Shown: positions 7,105 through 32,000 of the stretch, piece by piece | Layout of the letters: the number at the start of each line of letters is the position of its first letter | Position numbering within the stretch: position 1 is the stretch's first letter | NCBI RefSeq assembly: GCF_000012905.2 | Contig: NC_007493.2 | Location: 1,650,001-1,682,000, forward strand | DNA length: 32,000 bases | Reading direction: 5' to 3' | Source of the DNA: Cereibacter sphaeroides 2.4.1 | GTDB lineage: Bacteria > Pseudomonadota > Alphaproteobacteria > Rhodobacterales > Rhodobacteraceae | Made by a program: the position numbers and the translations under genes | The notes under the pieces: generated by a model | Databases searched by the model: none | Seen by the model: only the letters and a program-made list of their open reading frames with translations | What the model was told of the DNA's origin: nothing

Positions 7105-10100
7105 TCAGGGCAGAACCGGCACCGGTCGGCGAAAGATCTCGCGGAACATGCCGGGCGTGAGGATCGAGAGCGGGTTCACCGAGACGGCCGGGCGGTCGGC
7201 CGATCCGGTCACGGAATAGTTGAAACCGAACAGCCCCTCGCCGCGCCGGGTCAGCACCGAGCCGATGCCGTTCAGCAGATAGATGGGCGAGATCACCCCC
7301 TGCAGGTCGAGCCGCCGGTCGGCGGTGCGATAGAGCCCCTCCAGCGTGACCCCCATCGAGGCCCCCACCGCCGAGGCCTCGGAGATCTCGACCGCCCCCG
7401 GCTGGACGCGGAACCGGACATCGCCCTCGGCGAAGAGCAGCCCGTCGCCGTTCAGCTGCTCGAGAAGGCCCACCACCGAAATCGCATTGAGGAGTGCCGC
7501 CAGCACCGGCGCATTCGTCACGCGGAAGTTCGAGACCGCCGCCCGTCCGCGGTAGCCGTCGCGTCCCTCGGGCATGAGGCTCAGGTCGAGATCGCCGCCC
7601 CGCGCATCGGGAAAGATCCCCGCCGAGGCGATCACGCCGCCCGCGTCCCGGGATCTCAGCCGCACGGCGCTGCGCCCGCTCATCGGGACCACCGACCCTT
7701 CGACGACGGCGCGCCCGTTCACCCGTCCGCGGAAGGCGCCGTTGAACCCGCCGCGGGTGCCGAAGCGCCCCTCGACGCCGGTCAGCGCGATGCCCGACGT
7801 GACCTGCAGCCGGTCGAGCGCGACGAGGATCGGCACCGGCGTGCCCCCGCTGCCGCCCCCGCCGCCCAGATCGCCCAGCCGCGTGAGATCGACCGACCCG
7901 CCCCGCAGCTGCACCTCGGGCGGCTGGTTCGCGCCCCGCCCGACCAGCGTCACCGGCGCATCGAGCCAGCCGTTCAGCCGCACCCGGTCGAAGCGCACGG
8001 CATCCAGCCCGCCGTCGGCGCGCAGATCGACCCGGCCCGAGGCCGCGAGCCCGCCCCCCTCCAGCACGAGCTTGCCGACCGTGACCGGCTTGCCCAGCGA
8101 CGCCTCGACCTCGAGCCGGCCCGCGCGGTTCGCGGGCTTCGACCAGCCGATCGCGGCCAGACCCGTGCGCAGCCCTACGAGGTCCGACGAGAGCGTGAGC
8201 CGCGGATCGCGGCCCTTCTCCATCTCCACCCGGAAGCGGCCGGGCGCGCGGCCCTCGACGGTGCCTGCGGGCAGACCCAGCTTGAACTCCTCGACGGCGG
8301 CAGGCGAGAGGGTGGCGGTGCCCTCGACCGACGACCGTCCTTCCGCCTCGCGGCCGAAGGCCAGCCGGTAGGTCGCATCGAACGGCACCCGGCCGAAGCT
8401 GCCCGCGCCGGTCACGGTCAGACCCTCGGGCTCCGCCTCGAGCGCAAGGCGGGGCGCCACGATGCGGCGGCCGGGCACCAGCGTGTCGGAGCGGAAGTCG
8501 GTGATCGTGCCGCGGACCGAGAACTCGACATCCTCGGGCTCGACCTTGCGCTTCAGCGGCAGGGAGAGCGCCGTCTCCATCACCGCGACGCCCTCTCCCA
8601 GATCGACCGAGCGGCCGGCCTTTTCGAGGAAGCGGAACGGCGGCTGGTCCAGCAGCGACAGGGCCGCCGTGACGCCGCTCTCGCTGTTGAGCGAGATCCG
8701 CGCCTGCGCCGGTTTCTCGGTCACGTCCGGCACTTCGAAGACCGAGCGCGTGACCCGGATCGGCCCGCCTGCGGGGGGCGTAACCTGCCCCTCCTCCAGC
8801 ACCATCAGATAGCGGCGATCCTCGATCGAGGCATAGCCCGACCCTTTCTCGATAGGCGGCAGGGTTTTGAGATAGCGCACGTCCCCGTCGCGGAACTCGT
8901 AGCCGAGCGACAGGCGCGTCTCGTGGCCGGGGCTCATGCGCAGGCCGGCCTCGACCTCGAACAGCCGCCCCTCCTGCACATTCTCCTCCAGCCATTCCCG
9001 GGTCTTCGACACCAGCGACAGCGGCCAGAGCGCGAGCAGGTCGGAATGCGAGATCTCGTTCAGCCCGAGGTCGAAGGCCACGCGCCAGCCGCCCGGTTCG
9101 GCCGAGGCATGGCCGCGCCCCGACAGGCGCCGCCCCTGCTCGACCAGCGCGAGCTGCCCGATGTCCACCCGGAACGGATCGAGCCGCATCCGCAGATCGA
9201 GCGCCCCTTCCGAGAAATGGACCGGCGTCTCGAACAGGCCCTCGGGGTCGGCGCTGGCATCCTCGACCCGGATCTGCGCCAGGATCTCGCTCGGCAACCC
9301 GCGCGAGACCCCCGGCAGATAGGCGTGCCCCTGCGCCGAAAGCCGGATCGAGCGGCCCTGCACCTCGAGCCGGGTGAGGTTCAACCGCTCGCGTCCCGGA
9401 TCGTAGGCGAAGGCGAGCCCGGCCTTGTCGAAGGCGATGGGTCTGGTCTCGGGCCGCGGCTGCAGCGCCCCCTCGCCGCTGTCGAGCCCCGCCTCGAGCC
9501 GCGTGAGCCGCCCCTCGCCGTCGAGCGCCGCCGAGAAGCGGCCCGAGAGCGCCGCATCCAGCACCTCGAGCCAGGCCACGGGGGCGGCCTGCGCGGCGAT
9601 GTCGGCAGCCGCCACATGATCGACCGTGGCCGAGATCCGCGCCTCGGGGCTGCCGGGCGTGGTGACGAAGGTCACGAGCGCCTGCGCGGGCGCGCGGCCC
9701 TTGGAATTCAGAAGTGTCAGGCCGATCTCGAGCGCGCGCCGGTCGGGCCCGTTCACCAGCGTGAGACGCCCGTCCCCCGCCTGCCACGTCCGGCCCGCGC
9801 GGCGGTCATCGAGCGTCAGCGTCGTGCCCTCCGCCTCGATCCGCCGGAGGTCCGCCAGCACCGGCTGGGCGAAGAGCCGGTCCACCGTCTCGCGCAGTTC
9901 GGCATAGCTTGCGAGGCGGAAGGTGCCGCCCTGCTCGCCCATGGCGAAGTCGAAGCGCCCGTCGGCCAGCCGGCGCAGCGCGATGCGCGCGCCCGAGAGG
10001 GTGATGGTCTTGGGATGGAGCGCGCCGCGCAGCGCGGCGCCCCGGTCGAACACCACCCGCGCCTCGGGCAGCGTGACGAGCGTGCGCCCGTCGGCCTGCC

Positions 10101-28747: not shown

Positions 28748-28814
28748 GGGCTCCACCGCGCCCCGCCCGGCCCGCCCCGCCCTGCATCACCCGGCCGGCC
28801 TGCCCGCCAAAAGC

Positions 28815-28842
28815 AAAAGGCCGGGCAGAAGCCCGGCCTTTT
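28815..28842. terminator. Bidirectional intrinsic terminator between the GNAT gene and the tRNA-Asp pair
   Basis: aaaaggccgggc-agaa-gcccggcctttt is a perfect 12-bp stem including the A/T arms. T-runs follow on both strands. It lies 18 nt downstream of the tRNA 3' end. Confidence 0.8.
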
Positions 28843-28859
28843 CGCAATCCTGAAAGAAG

Positions 28860-28936
28860 TGGCGCGGTTGACGGGGCTCGAACCCGCGACCCCCGGCGTG
28901 ACAGGCCGGTACTCTAACCAACTGAGCTACAACCGC
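28860..28936 (-). tRNA. tRNA-Asp (anticodon GTC), copy 1, CCA encoded
   Basis: The reverse complement folds by hand as follows. Acceptor GCGGTTG/CAACCGC. D arm GCTC-AGTTGGTTA-GAGT. Anticodon arm CCGGC-CTGTCAC-GCCGG. Variable loop GGGTC. T arm GCGGG-TTCGAGC-CCCGT. Discriminator G, then CCA. It closely resembles E. coli tRNA-Asp. Confidence 0.93.
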
Positions 28937-28971
28937 GCTCTTCTTCCTCACGTTCGGGCGGCGGCGGACGG

Positions 28972-29048
28972 TGGCGCGGTTGACGGGGCTCGAACCCGCG
29001 ACCCCCGGCGTGACAGGCCGGTACTCTAACCGACTGAGCTACAACCGC
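28972..29048 (-). tRNA. tRNA-Asp (anticodon GTC), copy 2, CCA encoded
   Basis: Same fold as copy 1. It differs at one D-loop position: AGTCGGTTA here versus AGTTGGTTA in copy 1. A 35-nt spacer separates the two genes. Confidence 0.93.
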
Positions 29049-29137: not shown

Positions 29138-29902
29138 TCATTTCTCCGGGGCCGGAATGAACTCGGCACTGTCGTTCGGTGGCAGGCGGAAGCGCCCGTG
29201 CGCCCAGTCCCCCGCCCGCCAGGCTTCGCGCGCGGCCTCGATCCGCTCCTTCGAGGAGGCCACGAAATTCCACCAGATCCAGCGCGGCCCGTCGGCCACG
29301 GCGCCGCCCAGCACCATCAGGCGCGCGCCCTGAGAGCCCGCCGTCAGCGCCAGCCGGTCGACCGGGCGCATGACCAGCATCCGCCCCGCCTCGAAGCTCT
29401 GCCCGCCCACGCTCACCGAGCCGTCGATGACATAGGCTCCCAGATCCTCGTGCCCCTCGGGCATCGGCAGCCGCGCCCCGGGGGCGAGAATGGCGTCGGC
29501 ATAGACCGCCTCGACCGGCAGATCGACCGGCGCCCGTTCGCCCCAGGCCTGCCCGAGGATCAGCCGGACGCGCTTGCCCTCGCCCTCGAGCTCGGGCAGC
29601 CGGTCGGCGCCCTGATGCACGAAGGCCGCGGCATCGTCCTCGCGGTCCTTCGGCAGCGCGAGCCATGTCTGCAGCCCGAACAGGCTGCCCGGCCCCTCCG
29701 GCGCATCCGTGCGCTCGGAATGGGTGATTCCGTGGCCCGCGAGCATCCAGTTCACCGCGCCCGGCTCGATCCACTGGTCGGTGCCGAGGCCGTCGCGGTG
29801 GTGGAGCCGCCCGCGCAGGAGATAGGTCACGGTGCCGAGGCCGATATGCGGATGCGGCCGCACATCGATCCCCCGCCCGGTCAGGAACTCCGCCGGGCCC
29901 AT
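29138..29902 (-). CDS. Pirin family protein lacking its N-terminal roughly 45 residues (probable gene remnant)
   Basis: It has MGPAEF..GIDVRPHPHIGLGTVTYLL.G...HRD and NWMLAGHGITHSER, which are pirin cupin motifs. Pirin-like sequence continues upstream of the first ATG (PFTFFDQ, 29903-29923). It then changes to NDKGKI and an in-frame TGA at 29942-29944, with no alternative start codon. Confidence 0.8.
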   Translation of the reverse strand: MGPAEFLTGRGIDVRPHPHIGLGTVTYLLRGRLHHRDGLGTDQWIEPGAVNWMLAGHGITHSERTDAPEGPGSLFGLQTWLALPKDREDDAAAFVHQGADRLPELEGEGKRVRLILGQAWGERAPVDLPVEAVYADAILAPGARLPMPEGHEDLGAYVIDGSVSVGGQSFEAGRMLVMRPVDRLALTAGSQGARLMVLGGAVADGPRWIWWNFVASSKERIEAAREAWRAGDWAHGRFRLPPNDSAEFIPAPEK

Positions 29903-30078
29903 CTGGTCGAAGAATGTGAAGGGTATTTTACCCTTGTCGTTTCAGTGACTTAGGGCAGCACTTGCCGAGATCGGGCCTCAAGCCCCTGCCCCGATCTACC
30001 TACATACGAGTCCCGCGAAACTATCAAGTCGATTGCCAGCCTAAATACATTTAATTTAGGCAAGGCGGATTGCAAAAC

Positions 30079-30411
30079 ATGGAAGCTTTATTATTTGGAA
30101 TTCCGCTATTCGTATTTACAGCCGCCTTTATTGGGGCTCTTTATTCGACTAAGGAATTCAAGTCGAAACGGGGAACCCGAATTGGTCGGATGTTCGATTA
30201 CCTGATTCACTTCACATTGGCGTTTTTATCGGCATTGGTTCTGTATTCGCCAATATCAGCCTATTTCGGATTGCCTCCTGATTTGCATGGATTTATGGCG
30301 CTCATCCTGTCTATGACATTTCACAATATCGCGAATGGATTCACGAAACTGTCAAAAGATAAAGATGCCATTCGCGACTTCATCATTCGATTGTTAGGCG
30401 GCAAAAAGTAA
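30079..30411 (+). CDS. Small 3-TM membrane protein with a charged C-terminal tail (moron, holin-like or exclusion candidate)
   Basis: 110 aa from ATG 30079; an alternative TTG is at 30070. Hydrophobic segments are LLFGIPLFVFTAAFIGALY, MFDYLIHFTLAFLSALVLY and GFMALILSMTFHNIANGF. The tail is KLSKDKDAIRDFIIRLLGGKK. A GGA-containing RBS lies about 9 nt upstream. I recognised no family. Confidence 0.6.
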   Translation: MEALLFGIPLFVFTAAFIGALYSTKEFKSKRGTRIGRMFDYLIHFTLAFLSALVLYSPISAYFGLPPDLHGFMALILSMTFHNIANGFTKLSKDKDAIRDFIIRLLGGKK

Positions 30412-30412
30412 A

Positions 30413-30441
30413 GGGGACCGAATTAACGATCCCCTCTTTAT
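30413..30441. terminator. Bidirectional terminator between the convergent small membrane protein gene and the tail-fibre gene
   Basis: ggggaccg-aattaa-cgatcccc is an 8-bp stem with one mismatch. On the plus strand it is followed by tctttatcttt. On the minus strand it is followed by tttactttttg. Confidence 0.6.
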
Positions 30442-30443
30442 CT

Positions 30444-32000
30444 TTATCTGCTAATCTGACTGACAATCACCTTCGGACGGTAAACAACACCCTTACCGGT
30501 ATCCATCACAACTCGAACTTTCAGGTTAGCAATGCGCTCGAATAAGATGCTTGAGTATACACCTCCAATGAGAAGGCCATTCACCGCCAGCGCCTCACCA
30601 CCCTCCAATTCTTTCGAAGCCAAGTAAATGCTATTGAATTCGGAGTTCGTCCCATACAAGTTAATCCAAGCATTCGGGTTTGCCGCAGTTGAAGCCCACA
30701 AGGTGACTGCAATTCTGCAACTCGAAACCGATGAACGACGCCCAAGAGAACAATAGAATTCAGTTCTGATCGGGTTAAGCAATGCTCCTCCGTCATCTTC
30801 AGCCGCCGCGAAATTCAATCCAGATCCAAGAGGAATGACACCTTCCCAAACCGAAGTGTCGTCTTTCGTGAATGTCTGGAATTGCTGATAATAAGTCTTC
30901 GATACGGCACCAGACACGATCATGTCCGAACGGACTTTCAGACTGTTGAATTCAGCATTTCCATTTTGCTGAATGCGCCATCCCGAAGTGTTTGCAACGA
31001 AGTTATTAGATTGCAGCACGTTATTAAAGACAGCCAATCCAGCGGCATTGAAGCTAGAGGTATTGATATGCTCGGCCAGAAGTGAACCAGTAGTGTGATG
31101 GTTCGATGTCAGCGTGTTAGAAGAAATGTGATTCCCCTTAACACTTCCATCAACGATCAATTCGCCTCCTGCTGCTTTACGGACGGCCAATGAACCCATT
31201 TGGACATAGGAAGCCACGGAGTCATTGCGGATATACATCTGAACCCGAGCGAAAGCCGCATTGGCATGAGCAGTTACGTTAGCCGTTTTTCGATCAACAC
31301 CAAGGTTAGCAGTATCGGCATAAACGTTTCTTTGCCCGAGCAAAGCACCAGCGTTATTATAGAACGCCAAACGAAGGATAACGTTGGCACCGCCTGAGCC
31401 TTGCGTTTGGAGCAGAGCCGAAACGTGATAATCGGTGCCGCCTGTAACGGCGAAGGTAGAAGATTGAACACCAGAATAGTTCGTGTCTCCTGTCCCGTTA
31501 ACGCTCAACCGCAGAATATAAGGGCTTGCCCAGACAGCATTACCGGCCACGCTGAAAGCTTGGAACGGGCCAAGCCCGCCACCTCCAACCCAAGTTGCCC
31601 CTCCGCTGAAAAACTCCGAGAAGTCTGCATCAGGAACAAGGTTCGAGAAGTCGCTAATGGCAACTTTCGACGCAACAACCGATTGGCTGGCAAGTTCCCT
31701 AGTTCCGATTGCCCCGGCAGCGATTTGTGCTGCAACCAATTCGCCAATCACATCCGTAGCATTGACGTTCTTGACGTATGCACCATTAGACCATCTATAG
31801 GTTTCACCTTTCCAGAAAATCAGCGATGTCTTCTTAGTTGTTGGAAGTGCAGCACCAGCCCATGGAGTGATTGGCTCAATCCCCAATGCGAAAGAAGCAA
31901 TATCGACACTGCCCGGAGTCGGAGCAGCAACAAGCTCAGATACCCATGCAGAACCGTTCCAGCGGTAAAGCTTGCCAGTCGGAACCTGCATAACTAGTTG
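30444..32000 (-). CDS. Phage tail-fibre / receptor-binding-like protein, 5' end probably beyond the window
   Basis: At least 515 aa. It has duplicated GKLYRWNGSAWV and GETYRWSNGAYV motifs. It also has GELVAAQIAAGAIGTRELASQSVVASKVA and NTSGWRIQQNGNAEFNSLKVRS, motifs I associate with phage tail fibres. The frame stays open upstream of the first ATG (31991) to position 32000. Confidence 0.7.
   Translation of the reverse strand, partial: QLVMQVPTGKLYRWNGSAWVSELVAAPTPGSVDIASFALGIEPITPWAGAALPTTKKTSLIFWKGETYRWSNGAYVKNVNATDVIGELVAAQIAAGAIGTRELASQSVVASKVAISDFSNLVPDADFSEFFSGGATWVGGGGLGPFQAFSVAGNAVWASPYILRLSVNGTGDTNYSGVQSSTFAVTGGTDYHVSALLQTQGSGGANVILRLAFYNNAGALLGQRNVYADTANLGVDRKTANVTAHANAAFARVQMYIRNDSVASYVQMGSLAVRKAAGGELIVDGSVKGNHISSNTLTSNHHTTGSLLAEHINTSSFNAAGLAVFNNVLQSNNFVANTSGWRIQQNGNAEFNSLKVRSDMIVSGAVSKTYYQQFQTFTKDDTSVWEGVIPLGSGLNFAAAEDDGGALLNPIRTEFYCSLGRRSSVSSCRIAVTLWASTAANPNAWINLYGTNSEFNSIYLASKELEGGEALAVNGLLIGGVYSSILFERIANLKVRVVMDTGKGVVYRPKVIVSQISR

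Follow-up and report, generated by a model that had tools for sequence, protein, structure and literature searches.

The window analysed here comprises 32,000 nucleotides (nt) of the Cereibacter sphaeroides 2.4.1 chromosome (NC_007493.2, positions 1,650,001 to 1,682,000, forward strand). We conclude with high confidence that a junction at 29888-29933 in this window is the attachment site attR of a 26.4-kb element of temperate-phage type, which a large serine recombinase presumably placed in a pirin gene. The other junction, attL, adjoins guaA at a distance of 26.4 kb from attR and holds the missing 5' fragment of the pirin gene. An initial annotation, made from the letters of the window, had described a sharp composition break that decapitates a pirin gene at one end of a foreign low-GC (guanine plus cytosine) element. 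These claims were borne out, and the element was found to be phage-derived. The break is thereby explained completely, including the reason why the nearby tRNA genes were bypassed.

The composition break and the truncated pirin gene

Sliding-window analysis confirmed the break. In 400-nt windows, the G+C fraction was 0.62-0.77 up to 30000 and 0.42-0.53 from there to the window end; in 60-nt windows, it fell from 0.73 to 0.47 between 29840 and 29900. At the junction itself, G+C changed from approximately 69% to approximately 48% over about 30 bases. The host part of the window had a GC content of 69.2% compared to 48.5% for the whole element, and GC at third codon positions (GC3) was 0.90 in the pirin and M20 peptidase genes compared to 0.46-0.47 in the two phage open reading frames (ORFs).

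The pirin ORF (Pfam Pirin and Pirin_C) lies on the minus strand and ends at 29138. Upstream, its frame is open only to a TGA at 29942-29944, as initially described, and reads NDKGKIPFTFFDQMGPAEF from that stop across the junction. The match to the Pfam Pirin model begins only at model position 19 of 108. The 3' fragment of the gene (29138-29909, minus strand) begins with the last base of codon 54 and extends through codons 55-310 to the stop codon. The promoter, the start codon and the first 53 codons are absent from it, and the sole in-frame ATG that remains is at 29902. The closest intact pirin, from Cereibacter sphaeroides, is 98% identical and 310 residues long. The native start is thus absent, as had been proposed, and the loss amounts to 53 codons rather than about 45.

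The two junctions rebuild an intact pirin gene

The element was assembled from ENA ERZ1758115 NODE_2, which matches window positions 29703-32000 with 0 mismatches in 2298. Its length between the two central dinucleotides is 26,397 bp and its GC content 48.5%; the right-hand 2.09 kb (29910-32000) lies in the window and the remainder beyond it. When the 161-nt 5' fragment at attL was joined to the 3' fragment in the window, an intact pirin ORF of 933 nt and 310 codons was obtained, free of disabling changes and 7-17 nt away from each of 13 alleles at empty sites. The host DNA of the two junctions, on the left of attL and on the right of attR, combined into a sequence that agreed with the empty site of CP033434.1 at 82 of 82 nt.

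This empty site, in which guaA is followed by a 310-residue pirin gene, was found in at least 13 strains, including CP001150.1, CP000577.1, CM001161.1, CP033434.1, CP033446.1 and CP033450.1; pirin is intact in KD131, ATCC 17029, WS8N and others. In the empty-site strains with enough flanking sequence, pirin is followed by an acetyltransferase and an M20 peptidase gene, with the exception of CP033446.1, which has other genes there. The insertion was conservative, with no target duplication, no loss and no terminal inverted repeats, and its sole visible trace is therefore the abrupt switch from host to phage DNA (69% to 48% GC). Beyond the window, the initial annotation had looked to a recombinase, the missing 5' fragment, an uninterrupted pirin gene in sister strains and a direct repeat of the 29915-29940 sequence. 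The recombinase was found at the far end of the element, the 5' fragment at the other boundary and the uninterrupted gene in sister strains, which defined the empty site. The direct repeat was absent, and only a 5-bp TTCTT core is common to both ends.

The abruptness of the break is the only observation that would favor an assembly chimera or a contaminant joined to host DNA. The same junction is present in four complete chromosomes of approximately 3.19 Mb (CP047031.1, CP015287.1, CP051468.1 and CP012960.1) and recurs in several ENA and Logan contigs from independent assemblies. Many such assemblies carry the truncated pirin gene along with the 110-residue phage ORF (30079-30411); moreover, a second junction exists, and the two rebuild the empty site exactly. 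On the strength of the independent assemblies and the exact reconstruction, a chimera was rejected, and we give it a negligible likelihood.

Structure of the attachment sites

In the sense of the pirin gene, attL reads GGTGGGCCCCTTCATCTTC TT GAACATGATTGGTATTGTGACC, and attR, as the reverse complement of the window, reads GGGTAAAATACCCTTCACATTC TT CGACCAGATGGGCCCGGCGG. Within attR (29888-29933), the host B' half-site occupies 29888-29909 and the phage P half-site 29912-29933. Between them lies the putative crossover dinucleotide (29910-29911), which is AA on the plus strand and TT in the pirin sense and supplies the first two positions of pirin codon 54. When the phage DNA on the left of attR was fused with that on the right of attL, attP was obtained, with the junction sequence ACCCTTCACATTCTTGAACATGATTGG. 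This is a 46-bp imperfect palindrome with 22-nt arms, symmetric about TT at 15 of 22 positions. A symmetry scan gave 10/22 for the next best centre, and the binomial probability of at least 15/22 is 2.5e-5 per centre. The attB junction, CCCTTCATCTTCTTCGACCAGATGG, lies within pirin codons ~47-61.

The only sequence common to attB and attP is the TTCTT core, and no longer direct repeat was found at the borders. The symmetry of attP points to exchange at 29910-29911, and the sequences by themselves fit exchange anywhere in the core (29910-29914). The P arm resembles the B arm (CCCTTCACATTC vs CCCTTCATCTTC): on hand comparison of the inner bases, B and P agreed at 10 of 12 positions and B' and P' at 7 of 12, and GGGCCC was seen among the outer bases of both B arms. 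As a result of this resemblance, the pirin-like "PFT" codons appear to extend 12 nt into phage DNA. The initial annotation was right that the switch is abrupt, but it carried pirin to 29921-29923; the crossover is placed at 29910-29911, and the "PFT" codons at 29915-29923 are phage DNA resembling the host arm. Likewise, the 7-bp hairpin AAGGGTA-TTT-TACCCTT (29919-29935) that it had set on the junction is present (fold z score -4.0, better than all 200 shuffles); rather than being a separate junction structure, it lies almost wholly inside the P half-site of attR. Two attB alleles, GGGCCCCTTC and GGGGCCGTTC, were found among strains, and both were seen occupied.

Published attachment sites of serine recombinases span less than 50 bp, and their core dinucleotide is flanked by inverted repeats that are imperfect (PMC5937489). 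In the published model, the half-sites of the pseudo-palindromic attP measure ~25 bp, and its inner recombinase-domain motif recurs in attB, in which the zinc-ribbon motif lies ~5 bp further inward (PMC3783163). In length, imperfect symmetry of attP and core dinucleotide, the sites described here match published serine-integrase sites, which supports the assignment to a serine integrase.

A serine recombinase adjoining attL

In the lysogens, guaA is followed by a 96-residue ORF and then by a protein of 567-582 residues with Resolvase, Recombinase and Zn_ribbon_recom domains (PF00239, 48.7 bits; PF07508, 55.2 bits; PF13408, 39.7 bits; all above the Pfam cut-offs). From its likely start at position 9618 of L007, a locus from a 2.4.1-type chromosome, the recombinase has 582 residues and the N-terminus KAYSYIRMSSAIQ, and its start codon is 47 nt from the crossover. 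It contains the motif YSYIRMSSAIQ, of the kind that holds the catalytic serine. The protein is UniProt Q3J212_CERS4, and the element proteins are ABA79151-ABA79172 of strain ATCC 17023 / 2.4.1. Neither a tyrosine integrase nor a DDE transposase was found in the element, of which the serine recombinase is the only recombinase; judging from sequence, this enzyme presumably catalyzed the insertion.

We also considered that a tyrosine integrase or transposase had introduced an island, for instance by targeting the tRNA-Asp genes, with rearrangement at a later stage. Two tandem tRNA-Asp genes (28860-28936 and 28972-29048) lie only 0.86 kb from the junction, and one internal 130-residue ORF of the element has an IS66 C-terminal motif. 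Besides the lack of a tyrosine integrase or DDE transposase, this explanation is contradicted by the conservative insertion without target-site duplication or terminal inverted repeats, and by the tRNA genes and the 3' part of pirin being ordered as in the empty-site strains. Both the tRNA-targeted island and a transposon insertion were rejected on the exact reconstruction of attB, the borders inside pirin and a direct repeat of at most 5 bp, and either origin is exceedingly improbable. Serine integrases normally do not use tRNA genes, which accounts for the bypassing of the tRNA-Asp pair. The initial remark that these genes were not the junction therefore held.

The 96-residue ORF (L007 9536-9826, minus strand; 9748-10038, plus strand, in L063, the corresponding locus of GCA_002844435.1) consists of 53 pirin codons fused to 43 phage codons. 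This chimeric ORF overlaps the integrase start in another frame and could couple or occlude translation of the integrase gene (int) in the lysogen.

In the mechanism that we propose, the recombinase would pair the ~46-bp pseudo-palindromic attP with attB inside pirin and exchange strands at the central TT. On the attR side, pirin codons 54-310 are left with no promoter or start codon. On the attL side, by guaA, the pirin promoter and first 53 codons are fused to the 43 phage codons, the fusion ORF running into the integrase gene. Integration would rewire int expression, in that the prophage int would be severed from any phage promoter across attP (29934-30078) and placed behind the host pirin promoter. 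Excision by the integrase together with a directionality factor would restore pirin exactly.

The phage intergenic region between attP and a 110-residue ORF (29934-30078) contains the two repeats that had been reported at about 29967-29997 and 30040-30060, both of which are present. The inverted repeat AGATCGGG/CCCGATCT at 29968-29975 and 29990-29997 was not outstanding (fold z only -1.95 and -0.03). The palindrome GCCTAAAT-N7-ATTTAGGC at 30039-30061 had a fold z of -3.6, better than all 200 shuffles. With only 47 nt between the int start codon and the crossover, a phage promoter of int would have to lie on the other side of attP, in window positions 29934-30078. From this geometry, the region may control both int, which it would drive across attP when the phage DNA is circular, and the 110-residue ORF in the opposite direction. 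A scan of 29850-30500 for sigma-70 consensus promoters found none.

Comparison with other serine integrase systems

In Streptomyces, phiC31 has its attB inside SCO3798, a pirin homologue, its attP just upstream of int, and exchange at TT (PMC5937489). The two cases are alike in that a large serine recombinase puts a siphovirus-type temperate phage into an ORF of the pirin family and inactivates it. Read on its reverse strand, the 36-bp phiC31 attB (PMC5940133) encodes APGEPKGTPWH, the stretch of pirin that directly precedes the HPH metal motif. When the sequences were aligned by hand, this stretch fell ~14 codons downstream of our crossover, which makes the two attB sites neighbours in the same conserved N-terminal cupin region. 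They differ in attB sequence and position and in host (Actinomycetota vs Alphaproteobacteria), and the integrases are barely related (phmmer E ~6e-4 over ~100 residues), so that the common pirin target looks convergent rather than inherited. The GC content of phiC31 matches that of its host, whereas the element here is 20 points below host GC.

Serine-integrase prophages of Firmicutes also split genes, as with Listeria A118/phi10403S in comK, Bacillus SPbeta in spsM and the skin element in sigK. In these elements, excision has been shown experimentally to act as a developmental or infection-time switch. The present element resembles them in its insertion within an ORF, in a gene that precise excision would restore and in the position of int next to the attachment site. 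It differs in host, target gene and integrase sequence, and the observation here is of an ORF that can be reconstituted. The pseudo-palindromic model of attP comes from an integrase of the A118 family (PMC3783163). The closest sequences are proteobacterial serine recombinases, those of the Burkholderia phages Bcep176 / Bcep22 / JC1, the closest among deposited phages, and of the E. coli YbcK type, at an identity of only 28-31%. As insertions of serine-integrase prophages into ORFs go, the element is of a standard kind, but the GC gap between phage and host is unusually large and appears to be stable.

Gene content of the element

From attL, the fusion ORF and serine recombinase are followed by a gene for an H-NS-like protein (L007 7420-7815, minus strand; PF00816, E 2.9e-19), directly after the integrase. 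The gene is conserved in the variant L063, with a ratio of nonsynonymous to synonymous substitution rates (dN/dS) of 0.08. Going by its family, the protein might act as a silencer of the AT-rich prophage within a GC-rich host. On the opposite strand come a 132-residue ORF, a 101-residue S24/S26 peptidase fragment and a 372-residue ORF with a Cys-rich N-terminus. An ORF-free, iteron-like region of 1.5 kb (L007 3980-5457) contains CACATAGAGGTTTTGAGATC in 4-5 copies and an 11-12-nt unit, GGTGACGATGT, in about 6 copies. Together with the adjoining 372-residue ORF, it may be a replication origin with its initiator.

After this region follow a DUF2971 protein, small ORFs with no assignment, two HNH endonucleases and another small ORF. 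Genes for packaging, the head and the first part of the tail come next (TerS, TerL, portal, S78 protease, HK97-type capsid, connectors, tail terminator and tail tube), then a third HNH endonuclease, the tail assembly chaperone, tape measure, distal tail, tail protein, DUF6950 and a 1205-residue tail fibre. The packaging, head and tail gene set of an HK97-type siphovirus-like phage is thus complete. The element ends on the right with a strong terminator, a 110-residue membrane ORF on the opposite strand, and attR. A PADLOC search of the accessory genes gave no match to a defence system.

In the window, the C-terminal 515+ codons of the tail fibre / host-specificity protein (PF09327) occupy 30444-32000 on the minus strand, and the gene runs past the window edge. 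The full-length protein (L001/L023) has PF13550 and PF09327 and matches phrog_5616, "tail fiber protein", at E 5e-159. The 110-residue small membrane protein (30079-30411, plus strand) is transcribed away from attR and has hydrophobic segments at residues ~1-24 and 38-65 and a charged C-terminus; a 110-residue version with an ATG start is on record, and a TTG start gives 113 residues. It had no match in Pfam, PHROGs or PADLOC and only 12 representative homologues among 1.84 billion proteins, and is possibly a holin-like or exclusion "moron" gene. Between these convergent genes lies a hairpin terminator (30410-30437) with an 11-pair stem and a T tract on the minus strand (fold z -4.4 on the minus strand and -2.35 on the plus strand).

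The three HNH endonuclease genes are free-standing (L007 679-1185 and 1267-1653; L023 10586-11071), and the one between the tail tube and tail chaperone genes is also found in L061, a relative with 83% identity. In CP047031.1 (L022/L006/L002), many genes of the prophage and its flank are split: TerL is 287 residues, the portal 339, the recombinase 268, and the capsid is in two pieces. The same genes are intact in the other 2.4.1-type chromosomes (L023, L024, L007), and the splits are probably assembly indel errors, not biology.

Relatives of the element

GCA_002844435.1 carries a variant prophage with the same attL adjoining guaA. Its phage stretches are 91-96% identical to the 2.4.1 element (~93.5% over the first 5.6 kb), with ~41-52% GC per kb, and its host flanks are 94.9% identical to those of the 2.4.1 type. 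dN/dS was 0.06-0.28, and the synonymous rate (dS) was 0.04-0.32 in phage genes compared to 0.12-0.15 in flanking host genes. Gene content is mosaic between the prophage variants. In L063 16525-19545, compared with L007, no DUF2971 gene is among the called genes, and a ClpP-like gene (PF00574) lies upstream of TerL. A 5-kb contig from run SRR19631145 showed 83% nucleotide identity over 4.9 kb at 47.5% GC, and Rhodobacter sp. AKP1 has proteins of the element as well. Metagenomes yielded more distant relatives that are syntenic over the tail module; these have 63-64% GC, and the module family therefore occurs in high-GC contigs.

Other matches were remote. For TerL, identity was 53% with the proteins of Klebsiella phage ST16-OXA48phi5.3 and Pseudomonas phage PAJU2. 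No deposited phage had a capsid more than 28% identical to that of the element, and among 5.8 billion clustered proteins just 13 homologues of the tail tube protein were seen. When the 2-kb phage end was searched as DNA, deposited phages gave only a trivial 65-nt match, in a Salmonella phage, and an IMG/VR scan with the tape-measure protein gave no match. Among representative genomes of 185,579 species and the Joint Genome Institute (JGI) metagenomes, the integrase had only relatives of at most 31% identity. No Cereibacter locus was among the results from the representative genomes, even though the gene is present in 2.4.1-type genomes; the genome chosen as representative may be one with no prophage, or the stretch may be masked. 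Since C. sphaeroides itself was missed, little weight is placed on this negative. No paper describing the prophage was found in the literature, and its genes have been publicly annotated since the 2.4.1 genome was deposited.

Prophage or remnant

Several observations weigh against a serine-integrase prophage. The attB half-sites are only weakly symmetric about TT (9/22), and inspection by eye gave no convincing case for a zinc-ribbon motif lying 5 bp further inward in attB than in attP. The exact attP 27-mer was absent from the JGI metagenomes and IMG/VR, and no free or excised form was seen there. Among the element ORFs, no lysis gene (endolysin or holin), replication protein or full repressor was recognized, and the 101-residue S24/S26 fragment resembles the C-terminus of CI-type repressors with no DNA-binding domain. 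Leads to these modules came from that fragment, the H-NS-like gene, the 110-residue membrane ORF and, as the sole candidate for replication, the iteron-like region beside the 372-residue ORF. No ORF carried the family annotation of a directionality factor, candidates not having been specifically screened and several small ORFs having no match. Recombination directionality factors have no common sequence signature. As the repressor-like gene is reduced to its S24/S26 domain, the prophage may be defective.

The lack of recognized lysis, replication and directionality genes and the truncated repressor-like gene would also be expected of an old, defective or domesticated remnant, such as a cryptic prophage or a producer of particles like gene transfer agents, inherited vertically and leaving the junction as a fossil attR. 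The small size of the element (26.4 kb) fits this explanation, as does the same-site variant, in which host flanks are 94.9% identical and phage dS is similar to host dS, as co-divergence predicts. The structural genes, however, are all intact, with dN/dS of 0.06-0.28, and the variants differ in gene content (ClpP-like vs DUF2971) and show a mosaic of dS values, as in circulating phages. A relative with 83% nucleotide identity also came from an unrelated sequencing run. Furthermore, the empty-site strains (pirin 98-99% identical) are closer to 2.4.1 than the second lysogen is, which favors separate integrations or scarless losses; vertical descent would need repeated scarless loss. A remnant is therefore unlikely, though it is the alternative to which we allow the most room. 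Read as a prophage, the element may still be inducible.

Origin of the GC gap

The initial annotation had interpreted the composition difference as very recent acquisition or an unusual donor. In the form of a very recent cross-taxon acquisition, with the ~20-point gap reflecting a foreign host of origin, this explanation draws on the contrast in GC (48.5% vs 69.2%) and GC3 (0.46 vs 0.90) and on the undecayed state of the split pirin gene. It also draws on the lack of a close integrase relative in the representative genomes or JGI metagenomes, the empty IMG/VR scan with the tape-measure query, and the divergence of the capsid (at most 28% identity). On the other side, at least three diverged versions at 46-49% GC are under purifying selection (the 2.4.1 group, GCA_002844435.1 and the 83% contig), and the proteins are found in Rhodobacter sp. 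AKP1. In addition, both Cereibacter attB alleles have been used, the distant tail-module relatives have 63-64% GC, and the negative genome scan is weak, C. sphaeroides itself not having been returned. We consider a recent foreign donor quite improbable.

One part of the initial interpretation stands, in that the pirin halves are undecayed, and the insertion in the 2.4.1 line is young enough for this. The rest is not supported, in view of the diverged variants (83-96% nucleotide identity, 46-49% GC, dN/dS 0.06-0.28), one of them at the same site. Because such variants keep 46-49% GC under purifying selection, the gap looks stable, and low GC looks like a trait that a phage lineage with Cereibacter as its host has maintained, not the imprint of a single jump. 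A more far-reaching picture would combine a Cereibacter phage lineage stably at ~48% GC (GC3 0.46) in hosts of 69% GC (GC3 0.90), tolerance through its own H-NS-type silencer, and a reversible on/off insertion in pirin by an integrase that converged on the phiC31 target family, with 2.4.1 as a natural, revertible pirin knock-out. Taken as a whole, this combination is speculative, and we would not expect all of it to hold.

Other features near the junction

Inside the coding sequence of pirin, an exact 14-nt direct repeat, CGGTGCCGAGGCCG, has its two copies 51 nt apart at 29779-29792 and 29830-29843 and is probably a coding coincidence of GC-rich DNA. Over the tRNA-Asp pair and its flank (28811-29007, minus strand), sub-threshold Rfam matches to SorY (28.7 bits, cut-off 111) and YrlA (28.5 bits, cut-off 69) were obtained, which are most likely tRNA-like or terminator artefacts. 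An Rfam search of the junction region and the element gave no match apart from the two tRNAs and the sub-threshold small RNA matches overlapping them.

Implications for C. sphaeroides

The element is of interest mainly for its stable GC gap, for an H-NS-like gene carried by the phage, for a target in pirin as in phiC31 and for the split pirin gene in a reference strain. The defined attP/attB pair and a proteobacterial serine integrase could, if active, be used as an integration tool in Alphaproteobacteria of high GC. In Streptomyces, pirin is reportedly a redox-sensitive modulator of metabolism (Tala et al. 2018). As the gene is split in the reference strain 2.4.1 and intact in other strains, comparisons between strains could be affected. 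The gap of 20 points in GC, or 44 points at third codon positions, is maintained by diverged variants under purifying selection and offers a useful case in which to study how phages of GC-rich hosts avoid amelioration and silencing.

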